DNA of 64,000 nucleotides from an uncultured Candidatus Saccharibacteria bacterium (GCA_964516975.1 CAZFAS010000001.1:118500-182499); one strand, 5' to 3'. Positions 2,294 to 54,919 are shown, numbered from the stretch's first letter. Numbers and translations are program-made. Notes: generated from the letters alone by a model not told the origin.

Positions 2294-2430
2294 TGGCTAA
2301 AAAGCACCTGGCGAAACAACTTAACAAGTGCAGAATCCTAGCAAAGTACACAAAAGGAAAGATCACACTCTCAAGGCAAAAAAGAAGCGGCCTGTTGCCA
2401 GAACGGCTTCATAAACCAGCAAAAAAGTGA
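2294..2430 (+). CDS. very small basic protein (45 aa)
   Basis: GGAGGA SD 5 nt before ATG; MAKKHLAKQLNKCRILAKYTKGK...; lysine/arginine-rich. Confidence 0.25.
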
Positions 2431-2540
2431 CACCCGAGTCCAACAATGGGATCACAAAGCGCGACAAGTTCGCGCTTTTTCTTTTTTGCCTTACTATGCT
2501 GTTTATACTAAAATACGTCTATTCACTAACAAAAATAATT

Positions 2541-3206
2541 ATGTCATTTATAAAGAGAAATCTATGGGGTATCGGGTTTGCGGTTATTCTTATAGGAGCT
2601 TTCGGAGCTATGTGGGTAGCAGGAAAAAATACAAATATACCCTCTCCTACTGCAACGGTGACGAATACCACAAACTTTACATTTGCTGATGATGAATATA
2701 TTAAAGGACCTTCCACTGCGAAAGTTACACTCGTAGAATTTGGCGATTTCCAGTGCCCAGCATGTGGTCAGTATTACCCTATCGTTGAGGAGGTTATGAA
2801 AGCTCACCCTGATAACCTCCGAGTGGTTTTTAAACATTTCCCACTTACTCAGATTCATTATCGTGCACAAATTGCTTCACAGGCTGCAGCTGCTGCAGGA
2901 ATGCAGGGAAAGTTTTGGGAAATGTATGATCTTCTCTTTAAAAATCAAAATAGCTGGGTAACAAAAAGTGGTAATACCGAATTTGAAAATTACGCAACAC
3001 AAATCGGCCTTGATCTGAGTAGATTCCGAATCGATATTAGCTCACAAGCTGCAAAGGATCGTGTAGCGCGTGATCTTAAGCAAGGTATTGACCTCGGAAT
3101 AAATGGCACGCCAACATTCTTTTTAAACGGCAAACACATTGATAATCCAAGAAGTGTCGAGGAATTCAATAAGCTTATCGAAGAAGCAACTAAGACCGCA
3201 CAATAA
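2541..3206 (+). CDS. DsbA-family thiol:disulfide oxidoreductase (thioredoxin fold, CPAC active site)
   Basis: N-terminal TM anchor then FGDFQCPACGQYYP...; ORF track gives longer GTG-initiated version from 2427. Confidence 0.8.
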   Translation: MSFIKRNLWGIGFAVILIGAFGAMWVAGKNTNIPSPTATVTNTTNFTFADDEYIKGPSTAKVTLVEFGDFQCPACGQYYPIVEEVMKAHPDNLRVVFKHFPLTQIHYRAQIASQAAAAAGMQGKFWEMYDLLFKNQNSWVTKSGNTEFENYATQIGLDLSRFRIDISSQAAKDRVARDLKQGIDLGINGTPTFFLNGKHIDNPRSVEEFNKLIEEATKTAQ

Positions 3207-3208
3207 CA

Positions 3209-3658
3209 ATGAGTACATCAAAACCACTTTTCTTTGCGTTTATTGTTGTTGCTTTCCTTGGATTTCTAGACGCCTCATATCTTACTGCGCACCATTACAG
3301 TGGAGTCCTTCCACCATGCTTTATAACCCAAGGATGTGATGTAGTAACAACAAGTGCTTACTCAACGATGCTTGGCATTCCTGTTGCACTTCTTGGAACA
3401 CTCTATTACCTCACCGTACTCGTACTCGGATTTATATATATTGATAAGAAAAAGGACTGGGTCATTCTCAAGGCATTACCCGTTGTAAACACACTTGGTC
3501 TCTTGGCTTCCGCATGGTTCGTCTATGCACAAGTCTTTATCATTCATGCACTTTGCATGTATTGTCTTCTCTCCGCAGCATCATCAACGACGCTTTTTAT
3601 TCTCATGATATTTCTAAGAAAAAGAATACTCCAAGCAACAAAAAACCCTCTCGCTTAA
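3209..3658 (+). CDS. VKOR-family (vitamin K epoxide reductase-like) membrane protein, DsbB functional analogue
   Basis: 4-5 TM segments, CxxC (CMYC) and loop Cys pair (PPCFITQGCD); immediately downstream of dsbA-like gene. Confidence 0.75.
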   Translation: MSTSKPLFFAFIVVAFLGFLDASYLTAHHYSGVLPPCFITQGCDVVTTSAYSTMLGIPVALLGTLYYLTVLVLGFIYIDKKKDWVILKALPVVNTLGLLASAWFVYAQVFIIHALCMYCLLSAASSTTLFILMIFLRKRILQATKNPLA

Positions 3659-7250: not shown

Positions 7251-8441
7251 TTACACGACACTCCCTGCTTCGATCTTGCTCCACTCCTTGTAGAGCCACT
7301 CAGCAAACTTCGTCGCAGTCCTCCAGATCGCCATCTTGTGGATGTGACCCTTGGAGTATCGCTTCTTTCCATCTACCACTACTGGCTCAGGGTGACGGAC
7401 TGTGATCTGCGCCTTGATCTCTTTGAAACGAATACCCCATGGAGAATCAGGATTCTTGATGAACTGATCCATCAGAAGATACAAGCCCTGACGCACTTCT
7501 GCATTCCAGTTTGCGACCTGACCTCGCGAACGACGAGCAAGGCCGAAATTTCCATCCTTTCCCTTGCGAAGCCCGACGCCACAATACGACTTGAACTTGC
7601 TCTTATTCGGAAAGCGACGGACATCACCGATACCTGAGATGATTCGAGCTGCAATCTTGGGACCACAACCCTTCACCTCGGCAAGCACCTGAGTCCAGAT
7701 TGGAAAAAGGTCAAGTGTCTGTTCGACTGCCTTTGCGCAGCGAGCTTCTTCAGCAATGAGTGACTTCAAGGTAACATCATTTGCTTCCGCATCCTTGAGC
7801 CAAAGCTCAAGCGAACCCGCTTCGTACCAACCTTCACTGCTACAAAATATCTCGCCGATCACTCGTTGCTTCAGTCTCTGCTGACAGGCAATGCGTGCCT
7901 TACGAGCATCGACAAGACTGCGATACTTCCACTGAATCGAGATCAGATCTCGATCAGCAGGAGTCGTCTCAATGAAGTATTCAGGATTAGTAGCAAACAG
8001 ATCAATGAGTAGTCCCGCATCTTCATCCTTACTCCGCTCTTCTCGAGCAGACTTCAGATAAAATGCTGGAATACGCAAAACCTTTGCTCCAATCGATTGA
8101 CCGCGAAGCGAGAGCGCGTATGCGAAGTAATCCCCACTTCCACCAAGAGTCAAAAGCACTCGGTCTCCTGACCGCAAACCATCATACTCGGATGGAATCT
8201 TCCAACCGTTCTTTCCTTCACTGCGATGACTGATTTGAACATCAGAGGGAATACCCTCTTCATTTTCTACAGTCATCCACTTCACAGGAAATCTTCCGAC
8301 AAGAAAATCGTATTCATGAGACTCACTTTCAAGCTCATACACAGTTCGCTCTCCACCATGATCGATTACGATCTGTGTCGGCCTTGCTTCTCCATCTATA
8401 GTCTTCTTGACTCGATGACGAATTCCGATGAGGCGTCCCAC
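7251..8441 (-). CDS. IS110-family-like recombinase/transposase (Transposase_20-type C-terminal domain)
   Basis: C-terminal ...GCGPKIAARIISGIGDVRRFPNKSKFKSYCGVGLRKGKDGNFGLARRSRGQ matches IS110 HhH/Ser domain; GTG start preceded by AAGGAGAG SD; N-terminal domain atypical (IGIRH instead of IGID). Confidence 0.65.
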   Translation of the reverse strand: MGRLIGIRHRVKKTIDGEARPTQIVIDHGGERTVYELESESHEYDFLVGRFPVKWMTVENEEGIPSDVQISHRSEGKNGWKIPSEYDGLRSGDRVLLTLGGSGDYFAYALSLRGQSIGAKVLRIPAFYLKSAREERSKDEDAGLLIDLFATNPEYFIETTPADRDLISIQWKYRSLVDARKARIACQQRLKQRVIGEIFCSSEGWYEAGSLELWLKDAEANDVTLKSLIAEEARCAKAVEQTLDLFPIWTQVLAEVKGCGPKIAARIISGIGDVRRFPNKSKFKSYCGVGLRKGKDGNFGLARRSRGQVANWNAEVRQGLYLLMDQFIKNPDSPWGIRFKEIKAQITVRHPEPVVVDGKKRYSKGHIHKMAIWRTATKFAEWLYKEWSKIEAGSVV

Positions 8442-24629: not shown

Positions 24630-24971
24630 ATGTCTCTTCCAAGTGACATCCGCGCCTACATGGATGAGGCGTTCAAGGTGTCAAAAAAGGAGAAACTCAG
24701 ACTCTGGTCGGCAATCTTCCGAGTTCTCGATCTTCATGGTGTAAGAGACCATGGAGAACGAATGTCAGTAATCAACCAAATCCGAACAGAGCTGGAAAAT
24801 CGTAAAAAAAAGAAGTCCGCACCTCGGACTGCAAAACCTGTCGAACCGCGAGTTCGACAGGAACCACACCCCCACCCTTCACCACGCGAGCGCACTGATT
24901 GGCTCGCGCAGGTCGAGGAGAGGCACGATGAAATCAGTGCTTCTCTTGAAAACAAAGGGCCCGCTACCTAG
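24630..24971 (+). CDS. hypothetical protein
   Basis: 113-aa ORF, basic/Pro-rich C-terminus. Confidence 0.4.
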   Translation: MSLPSDIRAYMDEAFKVSKKEKLRLWSAIFRVLDLHGVRDHGERMSVINQIRTELENRKKKKSAPRTAKPVEPRVRQEPHPHPSPRERTDWLAQVEERHDEISASLENKGPAT

Positions 24972-24990
24972 CGGGCCCTTTTCTATTTCT
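24953..24990. terminator. bidirectional rho-independent terminator
   Basis: GGGCCCGCTacctaGCGGGCCC + TTTTCTATTTCT between convergent genes. Confidence 0.65.
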
Positions 24991-27709
24991 GATACTTTTT
25001 CATTATCTCACCCTCTATTTCGTACCTATCCCTTCCGAACTCCTGATATGAAAGTCGCTTGATCGTCTCAACATCCACATCAGTCTTCGGCGGTGGTGGC
25101 ATTGCCTTCATATTAAACGGCTTTACCGGTTTTCCATTGGCAAGCATTTTTACAAACGCATTGTAATTATCGATGTTTATTATTTCTGAAACAGAAAATA
25201 CAGGCTCAAACTGTTTTACAAGATATTCTGCATCATCAACCCCTACTCGATATGAAATTATAGTACCCACATTTCCAAACACGGCATTCTTGATATTCTC
25301 ATCGAGCTGTCCGATGAACTGATGTGCGATATAGAGAGATAAACGATATTTTCTCGCCTCCGAAAGGATCGTTGCAATAGATGGAGTGGTAATATTCTGA
25401 AACTCATCTATATAGAGATAAAATGGGGGGAAATCTTTTCCGAGCATATCCACTCGTGAAAGTGACGCCATAAGTATCTTTCCAACCAAGATAAGACCGA
25501 TGAGGTTTGCATTGATGTCTCCGAGTCTTCCCTTCGAAAGATTCACGAGGAGGATTTTCTTATTATCCATAATATCGCGGAAGTTAAACGAAGATTTCTC
25601 CTGCGCGATAATCGGACGCATGATCTCATTTGCGAGGAATACATCGAACTTACTTGTGATATATGGCACGATATTTGCAAGAGCTCCTTCCCCGCCAGCT
25701 TTTTCTGCAACTTCATTCCAAAATTGTACGACGATCGGATTTCGACATCGCGATAATTTGAGCTGTCTAAATTCTTTATTTGCGAGCACACGAGAAACAT
25801 CGAGGAGCGTTGAACCCGACTCAGGGTCCTCGATCACGAGCATCGTCGCGTTTCTAAAATACTGTTCGAACATTGGCCCCATTGATTCTGGTACTGCTCC
25901 ATACAGTTTTTGGAAAATACTAAAAAGCTCATTCACTACAAAAGTTTTTTGCTCCGGAAAACGATAATCATACTCGAGCATATTGAGTGCCATCGGCCTA
26001 TCAATAAATGCTGGATCAAAATAGATAACATCTTTCATTCGCTCTGGTGGGACATGTGCTAATACATCCTGAACATCCGATCCATGCGGATCGATCATAC
26101 ATACACCATTACCACGTTCGATGTCCTGAATAATCATATTCTTAAGGAGTGTGGTCTTACCAGTACCTGTTTGTCCGATCGTGTATACATGGCGAAGTCT
26201 ATCTTCATCAGTCAAATACACCTTTGTATCTTGGCCGCGATATGAGTTCACTCCGATAAGGGTTCCAAGCTCAGGAAGCTCATGCGGTGCTGGGGCATAC
26301 CCACTCTTTGCTACCTTGAGCTGACTTGCTCCCTTGAGGGCACTTGTGTGGAAGTGGATAAGAGTAGTGAGTTCTTTAATATTGAGTGGGATAAAATCTG
26401 CCCAATCAAAAGCTCGAAATGCAAATGATCTTATAAACTTCTTCAGCTTTCCACCATTACTGATTCGTGAAAATCGAATACCATTACCCTGCGTCTCATC
26501 GAACTGATTAAAACTCGATTCAAGATCAGCTAAAATACTTTCCGCTCGGTTCTTATCACCGGCAGAAACTACGATCCGAATATTGATAGCACAAATAGGA
26601 CTGCTTAATTTTTTCTGAATTTTTTCTATTGCCTGAGTATCGACTTTCTTCTCTTCTTTTTTTTCATCTTTCTTAGTAGCGCCAAATATAGATTTAAATG
26701 TCTTACCGAGCTCTGTCACAAAAGAATTTTCAGCAGTTGCTTCCTTAGCAGACATGCCTTTTTCTATCTTTTTTATTGCTGATTCATATTTCTGCTTGTA
26801 CGTATCACCCACAGGTCCCATCATCACCTGAAGACATGCTCCCTCACCTTCCTTTTGAATCTTCGAAAAACTATTGAGGATTACATTGAGCGGATCATGA
26901 TCAAAAGACTCATATGTACGCATTTGAAATGCTGGATTTCCGTTCGAATACCCTACTGAACCAAGTGACACGCCTTCTTGGTTGAAGATATTATGATCAT
27001 CATTTTTCTCTGTAACTCGCGCATCATGAAAAATAGATAGGATTTGTTTTTCAAATAAATCCTTTCGTTCATCTGGTACCGCAACATAAAAAATAAACTC
27101 ATCACTACCATTACTATTTGCGATTTCAAGAGTAATATAATCTCGTTTATTATATTCATCACCAGAAATGGATGTCATACCGGCATAAAACTGCTCCATA
27201 CCAGAGATAAGCTCTTTTAACCCTCTTTGCTGTTCATCAGATCCTTGCGGAAGTACTACTTCATAAAGTGTCATGCGAAGTGCTCGTGAAAGTGGAGCTC
27301 TTGTGGGTAATCCTTTAACTTCAAAACCTTTTTTTACATACTGCACGAGAAATCGATGGAAATCATCTTCGACATGAACATCGCCAAGCTTTTCGATAAT
27401 AGCTAAAGTATTCTTTATCCCCTTTTGATTGAGCAAAATTAAAAGTTCATCCATTTTCTTGTCATGTGGTTCAGGAGAAAGATTGAGCGCAAGCGCATGG
27501 ATTGTGTCTTGTGTAAGCGCATGATGAGCATGCAAGATAGTATGAGGCTGTAAATTGTATTCTTTAAGTTTCTCTCCGATAACCTTATCCCGCGAAACTT
27601 CGTTTCCTGATTCACGGAGGAAACGTTCCTGTTTCAATACTTCATTTTTAATATGAGAAATTTCCTCTTCTTTTGTCCGAAGTGATTCCAATCTTGTTTC
27701 TGGTTCCAT
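24983..27709 (-). CDS. large P-loop ATPase of HerA/FtsK/TraD(VirD4)-like superfamily with ~480-aa N-terminal domain of unknown function
   Basis: Walker A GQTGTGKTT then MIDPHGSDV (HerA/AAA_10-like); Walker B ...YLYIDEFQN; C-terminal TraD/TraG-like region. Confidence 0.7.
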   Translation of the reverse strand: MEPETRLESLRTKEEEISHIKNEVLKQERFLRESGNEVSRDKVIGEKLKEYNLQPHTILHAHHALTQDTIHALALNLSPEPHDKKMDELLILLNQKGIKNTLAIIEKLGDVHVEDDFHRFLVQYVKKGFEVKGLPTRAPLSRALRMTLYEVVLPQGSDEQQRGLKELISGMEQFYAGMTSISGDEYNKRDYITLEIANSNGSDEFIFYVAVPDERKDLFEKQILSIFHDARVTEKNDDHNIFNQEGVSLGSVGYSNGNPAFQMRTYESFDHDPLNVILNSFSKIQKEGEGACLQVMMGPVGDTYKQKYESAIKKIEKGMSAKEATAENSFVTELGKTFKSIFGATKKDEKKEEKKVDTQAIEKIQKKLSSPICAINIRIVVSAGDKNRAESILADLESSFNQFDETQGNGIRFSRISNGGKLKKFIRSFAFRAFDWADFIPLNIKELTTLIHFHTSALKGASQLKVAKSGYAPAPHELPELGTLIGVNSYRGQDTKVYLTDEDRLRHVYTIGQTGTGKTTLLKNMIIQDIERGNGVCMIDPHGSDVQDVLAHVPPERMKDVIYFDPAFIDRPMALNMLEYDYRFPEQKTFVVNELFSIFQKLYGAVPESMGPMFEQYFRNATMLVIEDPESGSTLLDVSRVLANKEFRQLKLSRCRNPIVVQFWNEVAEKAGGEGALANIVPYITSKFDVFLANEIMRPIIAQEKSSFNFRDIMDNKKILLVNLSKGRLGDINANLIGLILVGKILMASLSRVDMLGKDFPPFYLYIDEFQNITTPSIATILSEARKYRLSLYIAHQFIGQLDENIKNAVFGNVGTIISYRVGVDDAEYLVKQFEPVFSVSEIINIDNYNAFVKMLANGKPVKPFNMKAMPPPPKTDVDVETIKRLSYQEFGRDRYEIEGEIMKKYQK

Positions 27710-27749
27710 ATAGGAAAATTATACCACCTTAACCTAGATATATCTGTGC

Positions 27750-27786
27750 AAAAAAACACCCCCGACAAGTCGGGGGTGTTTTTTAA
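27750..27786. terminator. bidirectional rho-independent terminator
   Basis: aaaaaaCACCCCCGACaaGTCGGGGGTGtttttt. Confidence 0.65.
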
Positions 27787-27968
27787 CTTTGGTTTTCCTT
27801 ATAACTTTGTACCTCATCAGTAAGCTCTTCAATTGTCGCGAATTCTCGCAATTCACCACTCGGTGTCACCCATCGAAATGGTTTCATTTCTCCCTCAAAT
27901 TTATTCTGTGTATCCTCTGGATTAAAACCGCTTTGTGAAGACTCTGCTGTTTCAAGATTTTCACTCAT
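27783..27968 (-). CDS. small acidic hypothetical protein
   Basis: 61-aa ORF upstream of ATPase on same strand. Confidence 0.3.
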   Translation of the reverse strand: MSENLETAESSQSGFNPEDTQNKFEGEMKPFRWVTPSGELREFATIEELTDEVQSYKENQS

Positions 27969-28068
27969 ATAATAAATATTGACTTAACTATACTAATGTG
28001 TTAAATTGTAGCGCAGAAAATACCTCAGAGTCAAGCTCATTTATACACTTATCGAAGAGGATACCTCT

Positions 28069-28671
28069 ATGCCCGCAGATTTGAATGCGGGCATGATGCC
28101 CGACTTCATACTACCCAACACATTGCGTGAACTACGCGCAATGATCCCCGAAGATCGCTACCTCTCAATCGTTGAAGATGACCTCTCAGATGAATATTTG
28201 AGAGTAAAACTCAAGGAGCTCGAGTGGCTAGCCGAAGTTAGCAGTGATCCAATTCTGCTAACTATTCACTCTGAAGGTGGTCATCTCGGAAGAGCCAGGG
28301 ATATTTCAAGGTTCCTCAGAACAACAGAAGTACCAGTGATCGGTGTCGCAGCACGACATTGCTACTCAAGTGCCTTACTCATCCTACTTGGGTGCAAGTA
28401 CAGAGTAGCGAGCAGTAGTGCGACATTCCTCGTCCACAATCCTGTTGTGAGATTTGCTTTCGAAATCAATGGAAGTGTTACGAGAGCAAAGCTTCACACC
28501 CTTGTTGACTCTGCGTTTGATCATTTCGAGTCGGAGCAACGGGTAGTTCGTGATCTTGTCTCATCATGCTCGTTTCTTGAGCAAGATAAGGTGTTTGAAA
28601 TCATGAACAAAGGAGAAATACTTAGCGCTCAAACTGCATTTGAGTATGGCTTCCTCGATAAGGTGTACTAG
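28069..28671 (+). CDS. ClpP-family (S14-like) serine peptidase homologue
   Basis: ...ILLTIHSEGGHLG...VIGVAARHCYSSALLILLGCKYRVASSSATFLVHNP... aligns to ClpP Ser/His region; slightly GC-enriched. Confidence 0.6.
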   Translation: MPADLNAGMMPDFILPNTLRELRAMIPEDRYLSIVEDDLSDEYLRVKLKELEWLAEVSSDPILLTIHSEGGHLGRARDISRFLRTTEVPVIGVAARHCYSSALLILLGCKYRVASSSATFLVHNPVVRFAFEINGSVTRAKLHTLVDSAFDHFESEQRVVRDLVSSCSFLEQDKVFEIMNKGEILSAQTAFEYGFLDKVY

Positions 28672-28675
28672 CACG

Positions 28676-28707
28676 CGCCGTCCTGCACAGCAGGACGGCG
28701 TTTTTTT
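28676..28707 (+). terminator. rho-independent terminator
   Basis: CGCCGTCCTGCacaGCAGGACGGCG + T7. Confidence 0.7.
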
Positions 28708-28709
28708 AT

Positions 28710-28737
28710 TTGACAAAACAAAATTTGATGATATAAT
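28710..28737 (+). promoter_or_regulatory. sigma70-like promoter (TTGACA-16-TATAAT)
   Basis: directly abuts terminator T-run; drives lipoprotein gene. Confidence 0.55.
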
Positions 28738-28766
28738 TGCTTCAAACGTTCATTCAAGGAGGTAGT

Positions 28767-29141
28767 ATGAAGACCCTGAAGGCAATCCTGTACCTGATCA
28801 CCATCATCGTTCTCGGTGCATGCGGGAATGTGTGGGAACAAGCTCGGTTTGAGCTTGTGATCATCAATCATAGCTCTGATGAGCTCATGATTACGGTCAA
28901 CGGTCGTGCCGTTGATCCCACAACGAAGGGTAATGAGACCCACCGTTACACTCCACGAGTCATCGTGGAGCAGCAGTACTACTACAACAACGGCTACTCG
29001 CCCGAGCCGCCAAAGTGTGCCACCTACATCGATGTTGTTGCGAAGAATCTTCGCAACAACGTACAGGTGCACAAGACCCTCTCAAGGGTCTGTCAGGACG
29101 AGACTCTCTCGCTCGATTTCTATTCGAACGAGTTCAAGTAG
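28767..29141 (+). CDS. small lipoprotein (lipobox LGAC)
   Basis: MKTLKAILYLITIIVLGAC signal/lipobox with AAGGAGG SD; ~52% GC; start at MKTLK not ORF-track start. Confidence 0.55.
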   Translation: MKTLKAILYLITIIVLGACGNVWEQARFELVIINHSSDELMITVNGRAVDPTTKGNETHRYTPRVIVEQQYYYNNGYSPEPPKCATYIDVVAKNLRNNVQVHKTLSRVCQDETLSLDFYSNEFK

Positions 29142-29149
29142 CCCCCGCC

Positions 29150-29192
29150 CCGCCCCGCAAGCTTTGCTTGCGGGGCTTCTTTTATATTTTTA
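29150..29192. terminator. rho-independent terminator
   Basis: CCCCGCAAGCtttgCTTGCGGGG + CTTCTTTTATATTTTT. Confidence 0.55.
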
Positions 29193-36130: not shown

Positions 36131-37837
36131 CTATCTATCTGGTGGTATCTGGTAGTAATTAATAAGAAACTTTGCGATATCCATAAATGGATCAGTAAGT
36201 GTCTCAGAAGCATATTTTACATTCTTTGGATAATAGGTATAGAGAAATACTATAAATTGAGGTTTGTATGCGGGGAAATAACCAAAGAAAGAGTGCAGAT
36301 ATCTATCTTCATAGTACCCGCCCCCACTTCCCTTTGAAATCTGAGCCGTACCTGTCTTAGCAGCAATACTATAATGCTCCTGCTTTACCTCTCCGTGACG
36401 AAGTGCTGTGTCTACAACACCCACAAGCATGCGTGTAATTGTTTCAGAAGTTTCTTTTTTGAGGACCTGCTTATCTGGGCCGAAGCTCATCGTCTTATAT
36501 CCACCGATTTTATAATTTATCCTTGTTGCGATATGTGGAGTTACGAGCTTTCCTCCGTTACCCAAAGTTGCGAGCGCTCGAATAGTCTCCACAGGGGTAA
36601 GAGCTATACCTTGCCCGAATGAAGCGGTTGCATATTCAATATCTCGAGGACTATTGAGGTTCGCTACAAGTCCGTGCGTTTCATTAGGAAGATCAATACC
36701 TGTTTCTTCACCAAGTCCATAATCAAGCATATATTTTGCAAAATTCTTCGTACCCATCTTAAGAGCTACGTATGCAGCGCCTGTGTTCAGTGATTGATTG
36801 AGTACTTCCTGCATACTTACTTGACCTCTACCCTTTCCATCAAAGTTCGAAAGTGTGCTTTTATTGAGTGTTAACTTACCCGCATCATAATATGTTGACT
36901 CTGGTGTAACTGCTCCAGCATCGATACCCGCTGCCATTGTGAGAGGTTTTACGATAGAACCCATTTCATATACATTTTCTACAAATTTATTTGAGAACAC
37001 TGAGGAATTTTTTTCTTCTTGAAGATTATTTGGATCAAATGTTGGGTCAAGTGCTATAGAATATATTTCCCCATTCGATGGATTCATCACGATTGCTCCA
37101 GTATATTCTGAATGATACTGCTCGTTTACTTTTTTGAGTTCCTGCTCTACATATGCTTGCACAGATGGCTCGATCGATGTTACGACGTCACCCTCAAGTT
37201 TGTTCCCTTCTATACCCTGCTTTAAATTTGAAAACACTTCTGCAAAAAAGTTTACAAAAACACTTTCGTTGTTTCTTCCAAGTACATCTTCATAATACCT
37301 TTCAAGCCCATACCTTCCCGCCAATTCATCACCCTTATAGGCAATGAACCCGAGTGTATGAGCCGCCATCGTATTGCCTGGATAGTATCTCCATCTTTGT
37401 TTATATGCAGTAATACCAGCAATCTTTTGCTTACTAATCTGATCAGCATCTGAAGCTGAGATCTTTTTTGCAACTTCTATATAGGTAGTATTTTTGTTTT
37501 CAATTTTCTTAAAGTATTCATCTTTATCAATAGATACAGCAGAACTAAGTGCTGCATAAGTCGCTTGCGGATCACTGATAAGTTTTGGATTTGCAGCAAT
37601 AATAAAACCATTTTTCAGTGTTGCCGCAGAGACAAGATCACCATCCTTAGTAGTAAAATAAATTAAACCACGATTGAAATAATCATACGTTGACTGTAAA
37701 TATTGTCTATCTGCTTTTGATTCAAAATCTTTTCGAGACACAATCTGCACCATGTAGAGCTTTCCAATAAGCAAAAAAGCAAATAGTAAAATTACTATCG
37801 AGAAAAGTCGTATCCTCGAAGAAGAATTCTTTGCCAT
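36131..37837 (-). CDS. ftsI: penicillin-binding protein (FtsI-type transpeptidase)
   Basis: N-terminal TM, SIVKP (SxxK), SxN, KTGTA motifs; between ftsL-like and murF. Confidence 0.85.
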   Translation of the reverse strand: MAKNSSSRIRLFSIVILLFAFLLIGKLYMVQIVSRKDFESKADRQYLQSTYDYFNRGLIYFTTKDGDLVSAATLKNGFIIAANPKLISDPQATYAALSSAVSIDKDEYFKKIENKNTTYIEVAKKISASDADQISKQKIAGITAYKQRWRYYPGNTMAAHTLGFIAYKGDELAGRYGLERYYEDVLGRNNESVFVNFFAEVFSNLKQGIEGNKLEGDVVTSIEPSVQAYVEQELKKVNEQYHSEYTGAIVMNPSNGEIYSIALDPTFDPNNLQEEKNSSVFSNKFVENVYEMGSIVKPLTMAAGIDAGAVTPESTYYDAGKLTLNKSTLSNFDGKGRGQVSMQEVLNQSLNTGAAYVALKMGTKNFAKYMLDYGLGEETGIDLPNETHGLVANLNSPRDIEYATASFGQGIALTPVETIRALATLGNGGKLVTPHIATRINYKIGGYKTMSFGPDKQVLKKETSETITRMLVGVVDTALRHGEVKQEHYSIAAKTGTAQISKGSGGGYYEDRYLHSFFGYFPAYKPQFIVFLYTYYPKNVKYASETLTDPFMDIAKFLINYYQIPPDR

Positions 37838-44788: not shown

Positions 44789-46498
44789 TTATTTAACGTA
44801 TTGTGGTGTATTAATATACATCCACTCTAGAAGTTGGCGCATTACGTATGTTGCTCCGATAGTGTTTGTTCGATCTCCTCTTTCCATAAGTACAGCAAAA
44901 GCGAAACGTGGATTTTCGTATGGGAAAAATCCTGTGACCCATGAATTCACTTTTTGTTTTGTTACACCAAGCTCTGCTGTTCCAGTTTTGGCAGCGACGG
45001 ATATTCCAGGCATCGAAAGACCTTTCGCTATGCCCTCATCAACTGAAAGTTTCATCCCCTCTTTTACAATTTGGAAATGATCGCCTGAAAGTGCAAGCGA
45101 CACGGTATCTTTACTTTCTCGAGGGTTATTCAAAATCACTGTTGGACGAAGTAGTGTGCCATTATTTGCAAGTGACGCTACTGCGCGCACCGCTTGAATA
45201 GGCGTCACCTGAAAACCATACTGACCGATAGAACTATTATACGTATCACCGATTCTCCACGGATCCCCTTTAAACGTTGCAGCTTTCCATTCTGGACTCG
45301 GAATATTTCCCACCTTTTCGCCCAAAAGGTCTATTCCCGTATTACTACCGAAACCAAACATTCGTATATATTTTTCAATATTTGCTATACCAAGGCCTTT
45401 TTGACCGTTATATCCCCCGCCAATCGTATAAAAATATTCATCAGATGATTCTGCAATTCCTTGTCTCATATCCACCCATCCATGCACCTTCCAGTCTTTA
45501 AATATAGTTTTCTTCGTTGGATCGTATGGATTTGGAATACTAATATAACCAATACTTAAAATCTTCTTGAGTGGATCAATCAAATTCTCTTCAAGAGCAC
45601 CGAGAGCGATATATGGCTTTACGATAGACCCTGGAATATAGAGACCTGAAATCGCTCGATCAATAAACGGATTATTTTTATTGAGCAAGATTTCCTGAAT
45701 CGCTTTCGAATCTGTACCATCTGTCATCACATTGAGATCAAACTCTGGATAACTTGTTATAGCAAGTATTTCACCATTATGAATATCCATAATGACCCCA
45801 GATCCTCCAGAAAAACCTCGATCAATCGCAGTAGATTTGATCGATTCAAACAATTTATTCTGTACACCAGCATCTATAGAGAGTGTGAGGTTGGCACCAT
45901 CTTTCGGAGGTGTCAGTAAACTCTCAGACTGAATATTACCAAGTGCATCTGTTTCTGTAATCTTAAGGCCATTCGTTCCAAGAAGCTCATTATTATAATA
46001 CTCCTCAACCCCACCCTTCGGAGTAAATTTTTCTTCATAATAAAATCCAGATTTATCTTTCGAAGGATATTTCACGAATCCGAGCACATGAGCAAATCCA
46101 GCTTGATTTATATATTTTCGAAAAGAAAAATCGCTTCCCGGATTTAGCTCATTCCATGCAAGCTCTTTTTTATTTCTATCCAGTATAAGTCCACGATCAG
46201 CATATATCGTCGTATGCTTCAAATGGTTCTTGTCACTACGTATTTGAAAAGCTTCACCTTGTTTCACTTGGAGGACCCACATCCTTCCAGTAAAAACAAT
46301 ACCAATTATTAAAAATAAAATACCTGTCAGAAGAAATGTGGTCTTTGAGATTGGCTTTTCGAGCCTTCCCTCAAACTGATGAGTGTCAAAATCTGGTAAG
46401 TTTGAAGAATCAAGAAATATTTCATCGGGATCAATCGTCCCTTTTGTATCAATTACTCCAGAATGAAATATTTTTCTTTTGATTCTCTTAAAGGTCAT
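44789..46498 (-). CDS. mrdA: penicillin-binding protein 2 (elongasome transpeptidase)
   Basis: SIVKP, SxN, KTGTA motifs; follows mreBCD. Confidence 0.85.
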   Translation of the reverse strand: MTFKRIKRKIFHSGVIDTKGTIDPDEIFLDSSNLPDFDTHQFEGRLEKPISKTTFLLTGILFLIIGIVFTGRMWVLQVKQGEAFQIRSDKNHLKHTTIYADRGLILDRNKKELAWNELNPGSDFSFRKYINQAGFAHVLGFVKYPSKDKSGFYYEEKFTPKGGVEEYYNNELLGTNGLKITETDALGNIQSESLLTPPKDGANLTLSIDAGVQNKLFESIKSTAIDRGFSGGSGVIMDIHNGEILAITSYPEFDLNVMTDGTDSKAIQEILLNKNNPFIDRAISGLYIPGSIVKPYIALGALEENLIDPLKKILSIGYISIPNPYDPTKKTIFKDWKVHGWVDMRQGIAESSDEYFYTIGGGYNGQKGLGIANIEKYIRMFGFGSNTGIDLLGEKVGNIPSPEWKAATFKGDPWRIGDTYNSSIGQYGFQVTPIQAVRAVASLANNGTLLRPTVILNNPRESKDTVSLALSGDHFQIVKEGMKLSVDEGIAKGLSMPGISVAAKTGTAELGVTKQKVNSWVTGFFPYENPRFAFAVLMERGDRTNTIGATYVMRQLLEWMYINTPQYVK

Positions 46499-46767: not shown

Positions 46768-47560
46768 GAATAATTTGTACCCAACTTAATTCAAAAATAT
46801 TTAGTGGATATGACAAATAGAGTGTCTTAAATGAGTCTGCCTCCGTTTCAGATATATGGCCCACGAGCGCAATCACATGAGAATGAAAAGCGGGAATAAT
46901 AACAGTGTCATTTGGATTTACTGTTAAATCTTTTGGTACTACAACAGTAAAATTTCCTCCGCCACTTCCCACAAGTTTGAGCGGAACACTACTCTTTGCA
47001 ATTTCAGCATCTATGGTAAACCCAGGATCAGAGTACATTCGAACTTTTGCAATCTTTCCATATACATCGAGCACTTCACCAAGGATCACACCCCCGACAC
47101 CGAGAACTTTGTCCCCTTTTGCGACAACCTCACCTCCTGTCTCAACATAAAAAAGATCGTATGGTGTTTCAAAAAAACGCGTGAGAATTCGAGCAGGGAT
47201 TGTGCGACCATTTGGTGTGGAAGATGATATACCTTTCAGCACTTCATTTTCTTTTTGCAAATATTCTGACTTTGATGCTTCGAGATTTGCAAGAAGTAAA
47301 TCCTGCTTAAGCTTCTCGTTTTCAGCAATGAGACTTGACTTTGAATAGAGAAAAGAAAACTTAGACTTTGCAGCATTAGAAACCGATTCACGAATCGCCC
47401 AAAGCGGTTTTGAAACTGGTTCAAGAATAGTAAACAAAAAATGTGGGAATAATCGTGAAATGAAAAAAGTTGCCACACAAAAAACAACGACGACTTTAAG
47501 TGCCATCGTAAATGATGCATTCTTTCGAGGTTTAGTTTTGAGCTGGTAATTCATCTTCAT
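46760..47560 (-). CDS. mreC: rod shape-determining protein MreC
   Basis: N-terminal TM, coiled coil, beta-barrel domains; start MKMNYQ overlapping mreB end (longest ORF to 47650). Confidence 0.75.
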   Translation of the reverse strand: MKMNYQLKTKPRKNASFTMALKVVVVFCVATFFISRLFPHFLFTILEPVSKPLWAIRESVSNAAKSKFSFLYSKSSLIAENEKLKQDLLLANLEASKSEYLQKENEVLKGISSSTPNGRTIPARILTRFFETPYDLFYVETGGEVVAKGDKVLGVGGVILGEVLDVYGKIAKVRMYSDPGFTIDAEIAKSSVPLKLVGSGGGNFTVVVPKDLTVNPNDTVIIPAFHSHVIALVGHISETEADSFKTLYLSYPLNIFELSWVQIIHE

Positions 47561-48608
47561 TCTGAATGAGTACTTCCCTAAAGCTATCGATATCTTCAAG
47601 AATAATACCCGTACCACGCGCAACCGCAGTAAGTGGATCAGACGCAACATGAATCGGAATCTTCAGTTCACTTTCTAAAAGCTCGGCGAGTCCTTTGATA
47701 AGTGCACCACCACCTGCAAGGTATATTCCTCTGTTCATAATATCAGAGAGAACTTCTGGTGGTGTAGTCTCGAGAACTTCGCGACTTGCTTCTATTAGGC
47801 TTGCTATCGATAGTGATATTGCTTCTCTAATATCTGAATCAGTAATAACAACCTCACGTGGAAGACCGGTCACAAGATCACGACCTTTAATAGAAGACTC
47901 GAGTGATCCTCCCATTGTAGGGATTACAGCACCAATCGCCATCTTAATATTTTCTGCAGTCTTCTCACCAATCAAGATTTTGAATTCACTGCGAATGTAC
48001 GAAATGATGTCGTTATTAAGCTTGTCACCTGCGATACGAAGATTTTTTGCTTTCACAACGCCGCCGAGTGAAATAACTGCGATATCAGATGTGCCTCCCC
48101 CAATATCAATAACCATACTTCCCACAGGATCATTTACAGGTAGTCGCATGCCGATAGCTGCAGCCATCGGCTCTTCTACAATATGCACCTCACCTGCTCC
48201 AGCATTTCGCGTTGCGTCACGGACTGCACGAATCTCAACATTGGTTATTCCTGATGGAACACCAACAACAACTCGCGGGCCAAACATTTTTTTATTATTT
48301 TTTTGCGCAGTATTGAGTAGGTACGTAATCATTTCTTCTGTCACTTCGAAATCCGAGATAACTCCATCGACAAGTGGTTTTACTGCGACGATGTGTGCTG
48401 GAGTACGTCCAAGCATTTGCTTTGCTTCATTGCCCACGGCTACCACTCTTCCTGTTTTTTGGTTTATCGCTACTACTGATGGCTCATTGATGACAATACC
48501 CGCACCCTTTACATACACAAGAGTATTTGCTGTTCCAAGATCAATACCAATGTCATTTCTGACAAAGTGTTTAAACTTTTCAAATGGTCCTTTTTTTTGC
48601 TTATCCAT
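47532..48608 (-). CDS. mreB: rod shape-determining protein MreB (actin homologue)
   Basis: IGIDLGTANTLVYVKG..., DIGGGTSDIAVIS, GGGALI motifs. Confidence 0.9.
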   Translation of the reverse strand: MDKQKKGPFEKFKHFVRNDIGIDLGTANTLVYVKGAGIVINEPSVVAINQKTGRVVAVGNEAKQMLGRTPAHIVAVKPLVDGVISDFEVTEEMITYLLNTAQKNNKKMFGPRVVVGVPSGITNVEIRAVRDATRNAGAGEVHIVEEPMAAAIGMRLPVNDPVGSMVIDIGGGTSDIAVISLGGVVKAKNLRIAGDKLNNDIISYIRSEFKILIGEKTAENIKMAIGAVIPTMGGSLESSIKGRDLVTGLPREVVITDSDIREAISLSIASLIEASREVLETTPPEVLSDIMNRGIYLAGGGALIKGLAELLESELKIPIHVASDPLTAVARGTGIILEDIDSFREVLIQNEDELPAQN

Positions 48609-53905: not shown

Positions 53906-54919
53906 CTACCTTTTTGCAATAATACTCTTCTTATAAGTATCGAGGTGATCGAGAGCAATACCAGTACCTCGCGCAACACAATACAAAGGATCTTTTGCAA
54001 GTACAGCTTTTACCCCAGTCCTACGAAATACGAGCTCAGCTATATTACGAAGTTGTGATGATCCTCCTGTCATAATGATACCGCGATCAATAATGTCTGA
54101 TGAAAGTTCTGGTGGAGTCTCTTGGAGTACATCCTTAATTGCTTTCACAATCTCTCGAAGTTCCTTTCCTATCGCTTTCACGATTTCATTTGTCTTAATT
54201 TCTACTGATCGAGGAAGACCGAGCACATAGTCACGCCCCTTTATTGTCATAACAAGCTCTTCATCGAGTGGAATTGCTGACCCAATTTTTATCTTAATTT
54301 CTTCTGCTGTTCTATCTCCAATAGCGAGGTTAAATGTCTTCTTAATATAGTCTGCGATTGCAGCATCGATTCTATTTCCAGCACACTTTACTGATGTTGA
54401 TGAGACGATACCTCCAAGAGAGATAACTGCAACGTCAGTAGTACCTCCACCTATGTCTACGATCATATGTCCAACCGGTTCATGAATAGGAATACCTGCG
54501 CCAATAGCAGCGAGGATTGGCTCTTTCACGACATATGCATTCTTAGCCCCTGCCTTTACTGCTGCTTCTACCACCGCTCTTCTTTCTGTAGATGTAACAC
54601 CTGCAGGAACAGAAATGAGAACTTCGGGTTTTGCAATATTCCATTTACCAAGCGCTTTTGTAATGTAGTACCTGAGCATCGCCTCCGTCACACGATAATC
54701 TGCGATAACACCATCTTTCATTGGTCTGTATGCAACAATCGAATCTGGAGTTTTGCCGATCATTTTTTTTGCCTCAAGACCGATAGCAAGAATCTTATTA
54801 TCTTCCTCTGAAATCGCTACAACAGATGGCTCATTCAATGCTATGCCTTTTCCAGGAACAAATACGAGAACACTTGTTGTCCCCAAATCAATACCAAGCT
54901 TTTTTGAGAAAAATGCCAT
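53906..54919 (-). CDS. second MreB/Mbl-family actin homologue
   Basis: IGIDLGTTSVLVFVPG..., DIGGGTTDVAVIS; paralogue of mreB at 47.5 kb. Confidence 0.8.
   Translation of the reverse strand: MAFFSKKLGIDLGTTSVLVFVPGKGIALNEPSVVAISEEDNKILAIGLEAKKMIGKTPDSIVAYRPMKDGVIADYRVTEAMLRYYITKALGKWNIAKPEVLISVPAGVTSTERRAVVEAAVKAGAKNAYVVKEPILAAIGAGIPIHEPVGHMIVDIGGGTTDVAVISLGGIVSSTSVKCAGNRIDAAIADYIKKTFNLAIGDRTAEEIKIKIGSAIPLDEELVMTIKGRDYVLGLPRSVEIKTNEIVKAIGKELREIVKAIKDVLQETPPELSSDIIDRGIIMTGGSSQLRNIAELVFRRTGVKAVLAKDPLYCVARGTGIALDHLDTYKKSIIAKR

Follow-up and report, generated by a model that had tools for sequence, protein, structure and literature searches.

What kind of motor is encoded by the 908-aa gene at this locus, and what might such a motor do in a patescibacterial cell? 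Much of bacterial diversity lies in the Patescibacteria, ultrasmall bacteria that depend on hosts to supply nucleotides and further building blocks. Their type IV secretion system (T4SS) is chromosomal and relaxase-less, and in the sole species tested it is essential. The window analyzed here is the whole 64-kb stretch of DNA (64,000 nucleotides), and an earlier note on it had left the function of the gene open, naming DNA translocation and HerA-coupled defence as candidate settings. We find that the gene product is a cytoplasmic motor, a P-loop ATPase from the coupling-protein (T4CP) lineage of VirD4, TraD and TrwB. The family is a catalogued, uncharacterised one, of which the gene is an ordinary member, and the neighbours of the gene in the window are not its partners.

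Gene structure and transcription

The gene is complete and occupies positions 24983..27709 on the minus strand, with an ATG start and a product of 908 aa, as the earlier note had read it. From the N terminus, the protein consists of a helical extension, a DUF8128 domain that is predicted to resemble the N-terminal domain of VirB4, and a T4CP-type ATPase. The extended -10 promoter proposed for it can be read directly as TGGTATAAT at 27726-27718 (27718..27726, minus strand). Because 8 nt separate this element from the ATG, and no Shine-Dalgarno sequence lies ahead of the ATG of the 908-aa gene, we infer a leaderless or near-leaderless, monocistronic mRNA. In many relatives, (G/A)TATAAT ends approximately 6-10 nt ahead of the ATG. 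The bidirectional terminators said to bracket the gene were recovered as hairpins with A/T runs on either side at both gene ends. The upstream hairpin (27751..27784, 15-bp stem) insulates the gene from a 61-aa ORF, and the downstream one (24954..24981, 12-bp stem) is common to the gene and a convergent 113-aa ORF.

The C-terminal half is a coupling-protein ATPase

Residues 481-908 (24983..26269, minus strand) constitute a P-loop ATPase domain of the VirD4/TraD/TrwB type, as seen with Pfam, NCBIfam, PDB and Foldseek. Four Pfam models matched above their gathering thresholds: T4SS-DNA_transf (PF02534; aa 493-831, 26.0 bits, cut-off 20.1), TrwB_AAD_bind (PF10412; 23.9 bits, cut-off 20.5), TraG-D_C (PF12696; aa 762-826, 26.1 bits, cut-off 22) and DUF87/HerA-central (aa 481-543, 28.2 bits, cut-off 23.2). 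Best matches in NCBIfam were TraD and VirD4-like models (SXT_TraD, 2.3e-14), none of them a T4CP match at the equivalog level (TIGR03743, 52.8 bits vs a cut-off of 366; NF045973, 32 vs 250). TrwB was the sole match in a sequence search of PDB, and Foldseek comparison of the C-terminal half with TrwB gave target-normalised TM-scores of 0.54-0.62. The initial assignment to the FtsK/HerA superfamily with a TraD/TraG-like C-terminal half was therefore correct and can be made more precise as TraD/TraG/VirD4-like. Among the Pfam families suggested for checking, TraG-D_C and the HerA-related DUF87 exceeded their cut-offs, and AAA_10 (PF12846) remained unmatched at E<0.01.

The catalytic motifs that had been recognized by eye are all in place (all on the minus strand): Walker A GQTGTGKT at aa 512-519 (26153..26176), DPHG at aa 540-543 (26081..26092), following the strand that succeeds Walker A, and Walker B YLYIDE at aa 764-769 (25403..25420). 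An alignment of 45 sequences shows seven of the eight Walker A residues as invariant, the final T not being among the conserved positions, together with D540, P541 and G543 of the second motif and D768 and E769 of Walker B. The DPHG motif aligns with DPNG of TrwB. Between Walker A and Walker B, the full-length model contains an all-helical insertion (aa 587-715; 25565..25951, minus strand), running from helix 587-603 through helix 710-715 at a pLDDT of only ~49-72. Its predicted place is where coupling proteins have their all-alpha domain, and in relatives matches to TrwB_AAD_bind span this region. The order Walker A, DP.G, Walker B, with a helical insertion (predicted in the 908-aa protein) ahead of the last, is common to this protein and to the coupling proteins TrwB of R388, TraD and VirD4. 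Unlike these, however, the 908-aa protein has no N-terminal transmembrane domain and carries about 480 extra N-terminal residues, which include the predicted VirB4-like domain.

The N-terminal half belongs to a known family

The N-terminal half had been described as unique and as a coiled coil, and neither description survived. PF26449 (DUF8128) is precomputed on an identical protein (P0001), which is already present in public assemblies, and on 120 of the 120 listed homologues; a search initiated with the N-terminal half alone retrieved 924 cluster representatives. The assignment is that of the precomputed annotation, a PF26449 match not being reported in our local Pfam scan of the protein. 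Overall, there are more than 2,195 homologues, of which the best 120 listed share 58-71% identity along their whole length. The structure model is purely helical only in aa 1-127, whereas aa 128-480 form an alpha/beta domain. When 28 N-domain sequences were scanned against Pfam (E<=5), only noise came back; a profile search against PDB sequences with this domain produced no credible match (the best, at E 0.08, was uS19), and searches of the literature for PF26449 and DUF8128 returned no papers.

According to the AF2 model (pLDDT ~55-76) and hydropathy, aa 1-127 (27329..27709, minus strand) are a soluble helical extension. It is the least conserved region, with a median identity of 38%, and its conserved motifs include F.SPEEEL.YLR and EDDFHRFLVQY. 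The DUF8128 core (aa 128-480; 26270..27328, minus strand) terminates in a conserved linker, HF.....P.LK...A..AP.P..LP. Residues E195, D238, Q294, K367, R432, E446 and H452 of this domain are invariant. Hydrophobic segments are absent from aa 1-480, where the maximum 19-aa Kyte-Doolittle mean is 0.87; the corresponding N-terminal maxima are 2.6-3.1 in a class of paralogues of ~800 residues (790-840 aa) with a transmembrane helix, the position of which is occupied by the aa 1-127 extension in the soluble class. The transmembrane anchor of coupling proteins is replaced here by ~127 aa of soluble helices and a 350-aa DUF8128 domain. A 413-aa protein that consists of DUF8128 only has two transmembrane helices and a C-terminal end located exactly at the linker; it shares a contig with a soluble full-length member. 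The 64-kb window contains no second copy of either DUF8128 or the T4CP detectable by tblastn.

The DUF8128 core is predicted to fold like the VirB4 N-terminal domain, and VirB4 ranks first among structural matches to the full-length model. By predicted structure the N-terminal domain is of the VirB4 type; by sequence the C-terminal ATPase is not: the models PF12846 (AAA_10) and PF03135 (CagE_TrbE_VirB) are unmatched, and VirB4 models reach the P-loop only (TIGR00929, aa 505-527, E 7e-5, 21 bits vs a cut-off of 643). Identity with VirB4 (TrwK of R388; PDB 7o42, 8rtd) is only 9-11%, and no VirB3-, VirB6- or VirB8-type genes adjoin the gene in the related loci examined. When the DUF8128 profile was compared by hhalign with VirB4 N-domains of Firmicutes, represented by single sequences and one 6-sequence alignment, the E-values of 0.37, 0.11 and 0.063 were not significant; the aligned segment was co-linear and lay directly ahead of the ATPase. 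A search for homologues of the VirB4 N-domain gave only four proteins, so a deep profile could not be built. The literature that we searched makes no mention of a VirB4-like fold of DUF8128.

Relatives on Firmicutes plasmids

Searches with tblastn identified Bacillus and Shouchella plasmid proteins with 21-23% identity over approximately 700 aa, among them WP_213380696.1 (B. subtilis plasmid NZ_OX419568.1) and WP_248290882.1 (S. clausii plasmid NZ_CP012476.1). These proteins (883-913 aa) have the same layout of DUF8128 followed by the ATPase, and no experimental characterisation of them was found. For the Bacillus protein, PF26449 is precomputed, and hhalign with the DUF8128 profile gave a probability of 98.8% (E 4e-17). 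Like the 908-aa protein, it has no evident N-terminal transmembrane helix, as judged by eye; unlike it, it carries a long acidic C-terminal tail. A counterpart of the aa 1-127 extension is missing from the Firmicutes proteins. In contrast to the 908-aa gene, their genes are plasmid-borne and stand at the head of a conjugation operon: the next gene downstream carries a replication-relaxation family annotation, and TcpC, TcpE and VirB4 (AAA_10) come after it. The bona fide VirB4 of these modules is a separate protein encoded downstream of the homologue (AAA_10 E 4e-83 and 1e-115). We considered a pLS20-type label for the Bacillus plasmids and dropped it, since VirD4 of pLS20 is a 786-aa protein with two transmembrane helices and a MobL relaxase partner. 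Judging from sequence, a plasmid coupling protein of this kind is the most likely ancestor of the patescibacterial gene, which would have been fixed in the chromosome as a core gene transcribed on its own.

Genomic context and conservation

Relatives are encoded in at least 595 species genomes, and the 80 listed matches with taxon-bearing titles are from Patescibacteria. The 908-aa gene is a lineage-wide core gene of this phylum and recurs in two gene orders made up of housekeeping genes: L15-SecY-Adk-Map-[gene]-NDK-DUF2238-RNase J-like-L20-IF3 and MraZ-RsmH-FtsL-PBP-MurE-MGMT-like-[gene]-YqeY-RmuC-L21-RecR-DnaB, the latter adjoining the dcw cell-division cluster. The earlier note had considered that profile searches might place the protein in a housekeeping family, FtsK for example, with conserved synteny; FtsK is not the family, but the housekeeping syntenies exist. 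Median identity of the ATPase domain is 71% (87 loci), and its range across loci, 71-82% vs 59-87% for DnaB, makes it about as conserved as the replicative helicase. Neither T4SS nor relaxase genes were found in the 64-kb window or within 6 kb of the gene at 84 related loci; thus, a T4SS link is unsupported by the neighbourhood. Such linkage is seen only in the distant Firmicutes plasmid homologues, and both its absence and the DnaB-level conservation set the 908-aa gene apart from coupling-protein genes.

The immediate neighbours named in the earlier note are real: a 61-aa acidic ORF (27783..27968; 14 D/E and 5 K/R), a ClpP-like gene (28069..28671; Pfam CLP_protease, 8.5e-11) and a lipoprotein gene (28737..29141; lipobox LGAC). 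As functional context for the ATPase, however, the ClpP-like and lipoprotein genes fail, having no counterpart in 87 related loci. We tried these two, the 61-aa ORF and the 113-aa ORF as candidate partners and rejected all four, as tblastn found no homologues of them in 7 and then in 87 related loci. The segment with these neighbours has a GC content of 45.9% vs 40.9% for the window; the ClpP-like, lipoprotein and 61-aa ORFs belong to a lineage-specific insert of higher GC content and are no partners of the ATPase.

The same class of genes was counted by Quinonero-Coronel et al. 2025 (PMC12102498), whose T4CP homologues are near-universal and mostly distant from virB4. The passages of that paper devoted to them report 5,713 VirD4-type T4CP homologues in 2,918 of 3,035 Patescibacteria genomes, only 148 of them near virB4, and VirB4 in 2,417 genomes. 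They also describe the patescibacterial T4SS as a monoderm MPF-FATA class, mostly without relaxases, suggest a possible exaptation of the T4CP homologues, and state that in Southlakia epibionticum the T4SS genes are essential and a T4CP homologue (DUF8128 or other) is non-essential (PMC12102498). The passages searched say nothing of the N-terminal domain, of a division into soluble and membrane-anchored proteins or of the synteny around the gene.

Discussion

We propose, as a reading that could well go either way, that the 908-aa protein is a T4SS-coupled motor, namely a ring ATPase that feeds substrate to the lineage's own T4SS via its VirB4-like N-domain. The protein would assemble into a ring, like TrwB, VirB4 and HerA, and, powered by ATP hydrolysis, would thread or deliver its substrate to a membrane channel; single-stranded nucleic acid or nucleoprotein is the most plausible cargo. 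The most plausible channel would be the chromosomal relaxase-less T4SS encoded elsewhere in the genome. Having no membrane helices of its own, the motor might dock through the VirB4-like N-domain, with VirB4/VirB3/VirB8-type proteins or membrane-anchored DUF8128 paralogues as candidate partners. A hint at the substrate comes from a single WWE3 relative, to which a C-terminal S1 domain has been added (E 3e-17). Against this reading count the lack of T4SS genes around the gene in the window and at 84 related loci, the T4CP homologues reported in more genomes than VirB4 and the non-essential T4CP homologue (DUF8128 or other) of S. epibionticum, with its essential T4SS genes, in the relevant part of PMC12102498, and the nature of the VirB4 link, which comes from predicted structure, sequence profiles giving no significant match to VirB4 of Firmicutes.

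For a protein derived from conjugation, DnaB-level conservation is unusual, and a housekeeping role independent of the T4SS would explain it equally well. An exapted housekeeping translocase, working alone or with non-T4SS partners in DNA or RNA import with the type IV pilus/ComEC/ComFC competence machinery, in chromosome handling or in nucleic-acid turnover, is possible, if somewhat doubtful. It would account for a gene that at 84 loci is never beside T4SS genes and instead keeps two housekeeping syntenies, although these may reflect merely an old, stable gene order. Consistent with it are also the S1 fusion and a membrane-anchored paralogue whose gene closely precedes a ComFC-like gene and a PilM/O/B/T/C pilus cluster, an adjacency seen in one lineage only. 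The greater frequency of T4CP homologues relative to VirB4 points in the same direction, as does the exaptation raised in the passages cited above (PMC12102498). Yet the closest characterisable relatives are found in conjugation modules beside VirB4. In the T4SS structures of R388, the part of VirB4 that the N-domain resembles contacts other inner-membrane components of the T4SS, which also speaks against a role apart from the T4SS. That very resemblance, together with the two-domain layout and the first rank of VirB4 for the full-length model, could alternatively indicate a divergent VirB4 paralogue, an ATPase for assembly or pilus biogenesis that couples no substrate; the membrane-anchored paralogues, which presumably resemble VirB3-VirB4 fusions, would count toward it. 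We consider this improbable, because the C-terminal domain matches T4CP models and the VirB4 families either go unmatched or, as with TIGR00929, extend over the P-loop only, because the Firmicutes modules have a separate VirB4 downstream, and because hhalign against VirB4 N-domains was not significant.

Two readings from the wider superfamily fare worse. HerA has the FtsK/HerA ATPase core in common with the 908-aa protein, as reflected in the DUF87/HerA-central match, in HerA complexes among the structural matches (E 1e-9 to 1e-12) and in PADLOC matches (mad8, 6e-14; HerA models, 3e-5 to 3e-3), and HerA-coupled anti-phage defence (Sir2-HerA, DUF4297-HerA, MADS) had been suggested before. This interpretation is largely refuted and hardly credible: the PADLOC matches are confined to the shared core, PADLOC on 4-5 neighbouring proteins was empty, and nuclease, Sir2 and DUF4297 partners are absent from the window and from 84 loci. 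Moreover, the N-domain is predicted to be VirB4-like and is no HAS-barrel as in HerA, and the gene is a near-universal, vertically conserved core gene outside any patchy defence island. Very unlikely, too, is a chromosome translocase of the FtsK/SpoIIIE type. The superfamily is the same, one of the synteny classes lies beside the dcw cluster, and the Bacillus plasmid homologue weakly matches FtsK_SpoIIIE (2e-5), in the P-loop region only; however, the 908-aa protein matches neither PF01580 nor Ftsk_gamma, has no N-terminal membrane domain and is better fitted by TraD/VirD4 models.

Whether T4SS-coupled, as we prefer, or not, the DUF8128-T4CP family supplies the coupling-protein homologue that nearly all of the phylum encodes, and its motor domain is as conserved as a replication helicase. 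Should it feed the T4SS, it would be the missing substrate receptor; should it act alone, it would be a conjugation motor domesticated for a new core function. The T4CP homologue counts and the idea of exaptation are already published (PMC12102498, in the passages on these homologues), and a VirB4-like fold of DUF8128 did not come up in our search of the literature. This predicted fold offers a concrete docking hypothesis and bears on the relationship between the VirB4 and VirD4 ATPases. More speculatively, and rather unlikely in our estimate, DUF8128-T4CP may be a previously unrecognised third branch of T4SS ATPases that bridges VirB4 and VirD4, keeping a VirB4-like N-domain on a VirD4-like motor, and may serve Patescibacteria as a near-essential, T4SS-independent nucleic-acid motor. 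In one version, these nucleotide-auxotrophic epibionts would use it to draw in RNA or DNA from the host, with membrane-anchored DUF8128 paralogues or the pilus/ComEC/ComFC apparatus as its docking site. Relatives of the protein are currently named 'type IV secretory system conjugative DNA transfer family protein' and 'TraM recognition domain-containing protein' at NCBI.

N-terminal domain

The open reading frame at 24983-27709 (-) is real and encodes 908 residues. Contrary to the earlier note, its N-terminal half is not unique, and coiled coil is not its main structure. All 120 best-listed homologues, including P0001, which is identical to the query, bear the Pfam domain PF26449 (DUF8128); this assignment is a precomputed annotation, and our local Pfam copy reported no match to the model. 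Searched by itself, the N-terminal half matched 924 cluster representatives (clustering at 50% identity), of which 143 reached E<=1e-30. Its conserved core corresponds to residues ~136-480. Eight polar or aromatic residues (E195, D238, F242, Q294, K367, R432, E446 and H452) are invariant in both family alignments. The literature searched contained no mention of DUF8128 or PF26449; the family is catalogued and counted, its N-terminal domain and function being undescribed in that literature.

The core was modelled separately from an alignment of 28 sequences (27-63% identity to the query), giving a pLDDT of 82.9 and a pTM of 0.83. All 14 Foldseek matches to this model at E<=3e-5 were TrwK/VirB4 chains (TrwK is the VirB4 of plasmid R388), and no other fold passed 1e-3 in the same search. 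VirB4 also ranked first for the full-length model, with ~880 aligned columns covering both halves of the protein. The predicted fold of DUF8128 is therefore VirB4-like. Profile comparison by hhalign with Firmicutes VirB4 gave no confirmation (E 0.06-0.37; the matched segment is co-linear and lies immediately ahead of the ATPase), so that the link rests on the predicted fold. The AlphaFold2 weights are older than the TrwK structures (2022 release), and the model is thus unlikely to be a memorised copy of TrwK.

Motor domain

The ATPase motifs quoted in the earlier note were all read in the query (minus strand): Walker A GQTGTGKT at residues 512-519, DPHG at 540-543 and Walker B YLYIDE at 764-769, with nearly all of their residues invariant in a 45-sequence family alignment. 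Four Pfam families match the C-terminal half above gathering thresholds, namely T4SS-DNA_transf (VirD4/TraG, residues 493-831), TrwB_AAD_bind, TraG-D_C and DUF87; AAA_10, named in the earlier note, did not match the query in Pfam. In NCBIfam, TraD and VirD4-like models match best, SXT_TraD first (2.3e-14); all are far below the equivalog cut-offs, and overlap with the VirB4 NCBIfam model is confined to the P-loop. TrwB was the sole solved protein detected by sequence, whether with the single query or with the family profile. In the full-length AlphaFold2 model (pLDDT 73) the C-terminal half superposes on TrwB with target-normalised TM-scores of 0.54-0.62, and residues 587-715 form a predicted all-helical insertion of modest confidence, at a position equivalent to that of the all-alpha domain of type IV coupling proteins (T4CPs). 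Taken together, the family matches and the TrwB superposition, with all NCBIfam scores below equivalog cut-offs, establish the motor as T4CP-like and as the equivalog of no named T4CP.

Relatives in conjugation modules and other lineages

A tblastn search against plasmids returned 366 records. Among these, several proteins from Bacillus and Shouchella plasmids, labelled "DUF87 domain-containing protein", align with query residues 188-886 at 21-23% identity. The Bacillus protein bears PF26449 by precomputed annotation, and hhalign matches it to the DUF8128 profile with 98.8% probability (E 4e-17, 254 columns). On two such plasmids the DUF8128-DUF87 gene comes first in the conjugation module, which is the classical position of the coupling protein, and directly downstream of it is a gene labelled "replication-relaxation family protein" in the plasmid record's own annotation (Pfam gave no match for that protein). 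Further downstream in both modules come TcpC-like genes, genes for TcpE or small conjugal-transfer proteins, and one for a VirB4 matching AAA_10 (E 4e-83 and 1e-115). The Patescibacterial gene is thus homologous to conjugation-module proteins. A pLS20-type label for these plasmids was considered and rejected; the VirD4 of pLS20 has two transmembrane helices. MOB-suite types the B. subtilis and S. clausii plasmids (L088:6111-15743 and L089:8845-18043) as non-mobilizable despite an apparently complete conjugation module, and their mobility may be under-called owing to the atypical coupling protein and relaxase.

Bacillus phage G gp156 is a two-domain relative as well, and proteins from the candidate phyla Jacksonbacteria, WS5 and WWE3 share the architecture. 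The WWE3 protein P0307 (L093:8001-10829), encoded in a housekeeping context, carries an additional C-terminal S1 RNA-binding domain (residues 854-925, E 3e-17); this fusion, a single case, points tentatively to single-stranded nucleic acid as substrate.

Soluble, anchored and stand-alone forms

With no hydrophobic segment in its N-terminal half (highest 19-residue hydropathy 0.87), the query is by sequence a protein devoid of a transmembrane anchor. In a class of paralogues of about 790-840 residues, the first ~135 residues are replaced by one N-terminal transmembrane helix followed by basic residues, the DUF8128 and ATPase layout being otherwise kept. A 413-residue protein (L094:20385-21626), whose gene shares a contig with that of the soluble full-length member P0018 and is flanked by a sigma-factor-like gene and yceG, consists of two N-terminal transmembrane helices and DUF8128 only, and stops exactly at the linker preceding the ATPase (hhalign 99.5%, E 8e-23). 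DUF8128 therefore behaves as a module capable of membrane tethering on its own. The 413-residue protein may serve as a dock in the membrane; alternatively, it may correspond to TrsD, which in MPF-FATA systems is a stand-alone protein resembling the N-terminal part of VirB4.

In a single lineage (L091:9001-20379, L092:4145-15523), the anchored paralogue P0270 is followed ~0.9 kb downstream by a ComFC-like gene (Pribosyltran and DZR domains) and a type IV pilus cluster (PilM, PilO, PilB, PilT, PilC and pilin). Two soluble full-length copies (L013 and L025, 60% and 58% identity to the query) occur in one metagenome-assembled genome, CALRBL01 of Candidatus Nomurabacteria MsH-01oct19-81, reflecting either family duplication or a mixed bin; single-copy status should not be assumed.

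Genomic context and conservation

Homologues number more than 2,195, the best 120 showing 58-71% full-length identity. In one-genome-per-species data, a relative is present in at least 595 genomes. Of the best 80, those whose titles give a taxon are all Patescibacterial (Parcubacteria/Paceibacteria, Nomura-, Taylor- and Zambryskibacteria, Minisyncoccia). We called open reading frames in 88 loci, 84 of which contain the gene, and clustered the neighbours. Two arrangements recur: L15-SecY-Adk-Map-[gene]-NDK-DUF2238-RNase J-like-L20-IF3, whose NDK cluster is found in 33 of the 84 loci, and MraZ-RsmH-FtsL-PBP-MurE-MGMT-like-[gene]-YqeY-RmuC-L21-RecR-DnaB, found in roughly 10-15 loci including the window. 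The clustered loci showed no gene for a T4SS component, a relaxase, a nuclease or Sir2 near the ATPase gene. In related loci the ATPase domain (residues 481-908) is 71-82% identical to the window's copy, the corresponding values in the same loci being 59-87% for DnaB, 58-67% for L21 and 50-62% for RecR; median identity is 45% for the DUF8128 core (87 loci) and 38% for the N-extension (84 loci). These data show a core, vertically conserved gene in housekeeping synteny.

Apart from one IS110-family transposase (7251-8441, (-)), the 64-kb window consists of housekeeping genes, with no T4SS or pilus genes. It includes two MreB paralogues (47532-48608 and 53906-54919, both (-)), two PBP2-type transpeptidases (36131-37837 and 44789-46498, both (-)) and an adjacent pair of DsbA-like thioredoxin and VKOR genes (2427-3658, (+)).

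The transcription signals reported earlier are borne out. The extended -10 element TGGTATAAT, read with the gene start at 27707-27726 (-), ends 8 nt 5' of an ATG that no Shine-Dalgarno sequence precedes, and hairpins bracket the gene on both sides (upstream, 15 bp with A/T runs on both sides, 27751-27784; downstream, 12 bp, 24954-24981). Many relatives (L003, L005, L007, L019, L021, L023, L031 and other loci) likewise have a TATAAT whose end lies about 6-10 nt ahead of the ATG, and lack a Shine-Dalgarno sequence. This shared spacing implies a conserved leaderless, monocistronic mRNA, an arrangement that seems typical of the gene family.

Possible functions

In their survey of 3,035 Patescibacteria genomes, Quinonero-Coronel et al. 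(2025, PMC12102498) counted 5,713 VirD4-type T4CP homologues, spread over 2,918 genomes and only 148 of them near virB4, and VirB4 in 2,417 genomes. The survey places the Patescibacterial T4SS within the monoderm MPF-FATA class, mostly without relaxases, and names as its most abundant component TrsD, a protein with remote similarity to the N-terminal region of VirB4. It also reports a non-essential t4cp homologue in Southlakia epibionticum and on that ground raises exaptation as a possibility. The essential T4SS cluster of Southlakia has no recognisable coupling or relaxase proteins (Wang et al. 2023, PMC10633639).

We give about even odds to an ATPase coupled to a T4SS. It would assemble as a ring and act on a nucleic acid or nucleoprotein, its N-terminal domain docking to the T4SS of the lineage, which is not linked to the gene, or else to DUF8128 paralogues in the membrane. 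The main rival, less probable, is an exapted translocase working independently of any T4SS; it agrees with the housekeeping synteny, with conservation of the ATPase domain at the level of DnaB, with the S1 fusion in P0307, with the paralogue beside a ComFC-like gene and type IV pilus cluster, and with the greater frequency of T4CP homologues than of VirB4 across genomes. The predicted fold of DUF8128 might suggest a divergent VirB4 paralogue, but the Firmicutes modules encode a true VirB4 in a separate gene and the motor profile is T4CP-like, which makes that reading improbable. An FtsK and, lower still, a HerA-type defence ATPase are essentially excluded. The earlier note is thereby partly confirmed in observation and partly supported in interpretation.

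This locus belongs, as an ordinary member, to a very large family that is catalogued but experimentally uncharacterised. Added here are the predicted VirB4-like fold of DUF8128, its soluble, anchored and stand-alone forms, the conjugation-module relatives and the housekeeping-grade conservation; these points are modestly interesting and confer no novelty on the individual locus.

Probable insert beside the gene

The neighbours named earlier exist, as a 1.4-kb segment (27783-29180) encoding a 61-residue acidic protein (-), a 200-residue ClpP-like protein (+) and a 134-residue lipoprotein (+) with lipobox LGAC. They are not partners of the ATPase: neither they nor a convergent 113-residue open reading frame have homologues in any of 87 related loci. 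The ClpP-like gene has a Pfam match (8.5e-11); its top NCBIfam match, below cut-off, is a ClpP-related phage head-maturation protease (1.6e-9), and visual inspection gave an ambiguous position for the catalytic serine. The closest relatives have the MGMT-like gene directly beside the ATPase gene, or separated from it by one small unmatched open reading frame. Flanked by strong terminators and with a GC content of 45.9% (40.9% for the window), the segment appears to be a lineage-specific insertion, perhaps what is left of a mobile element.
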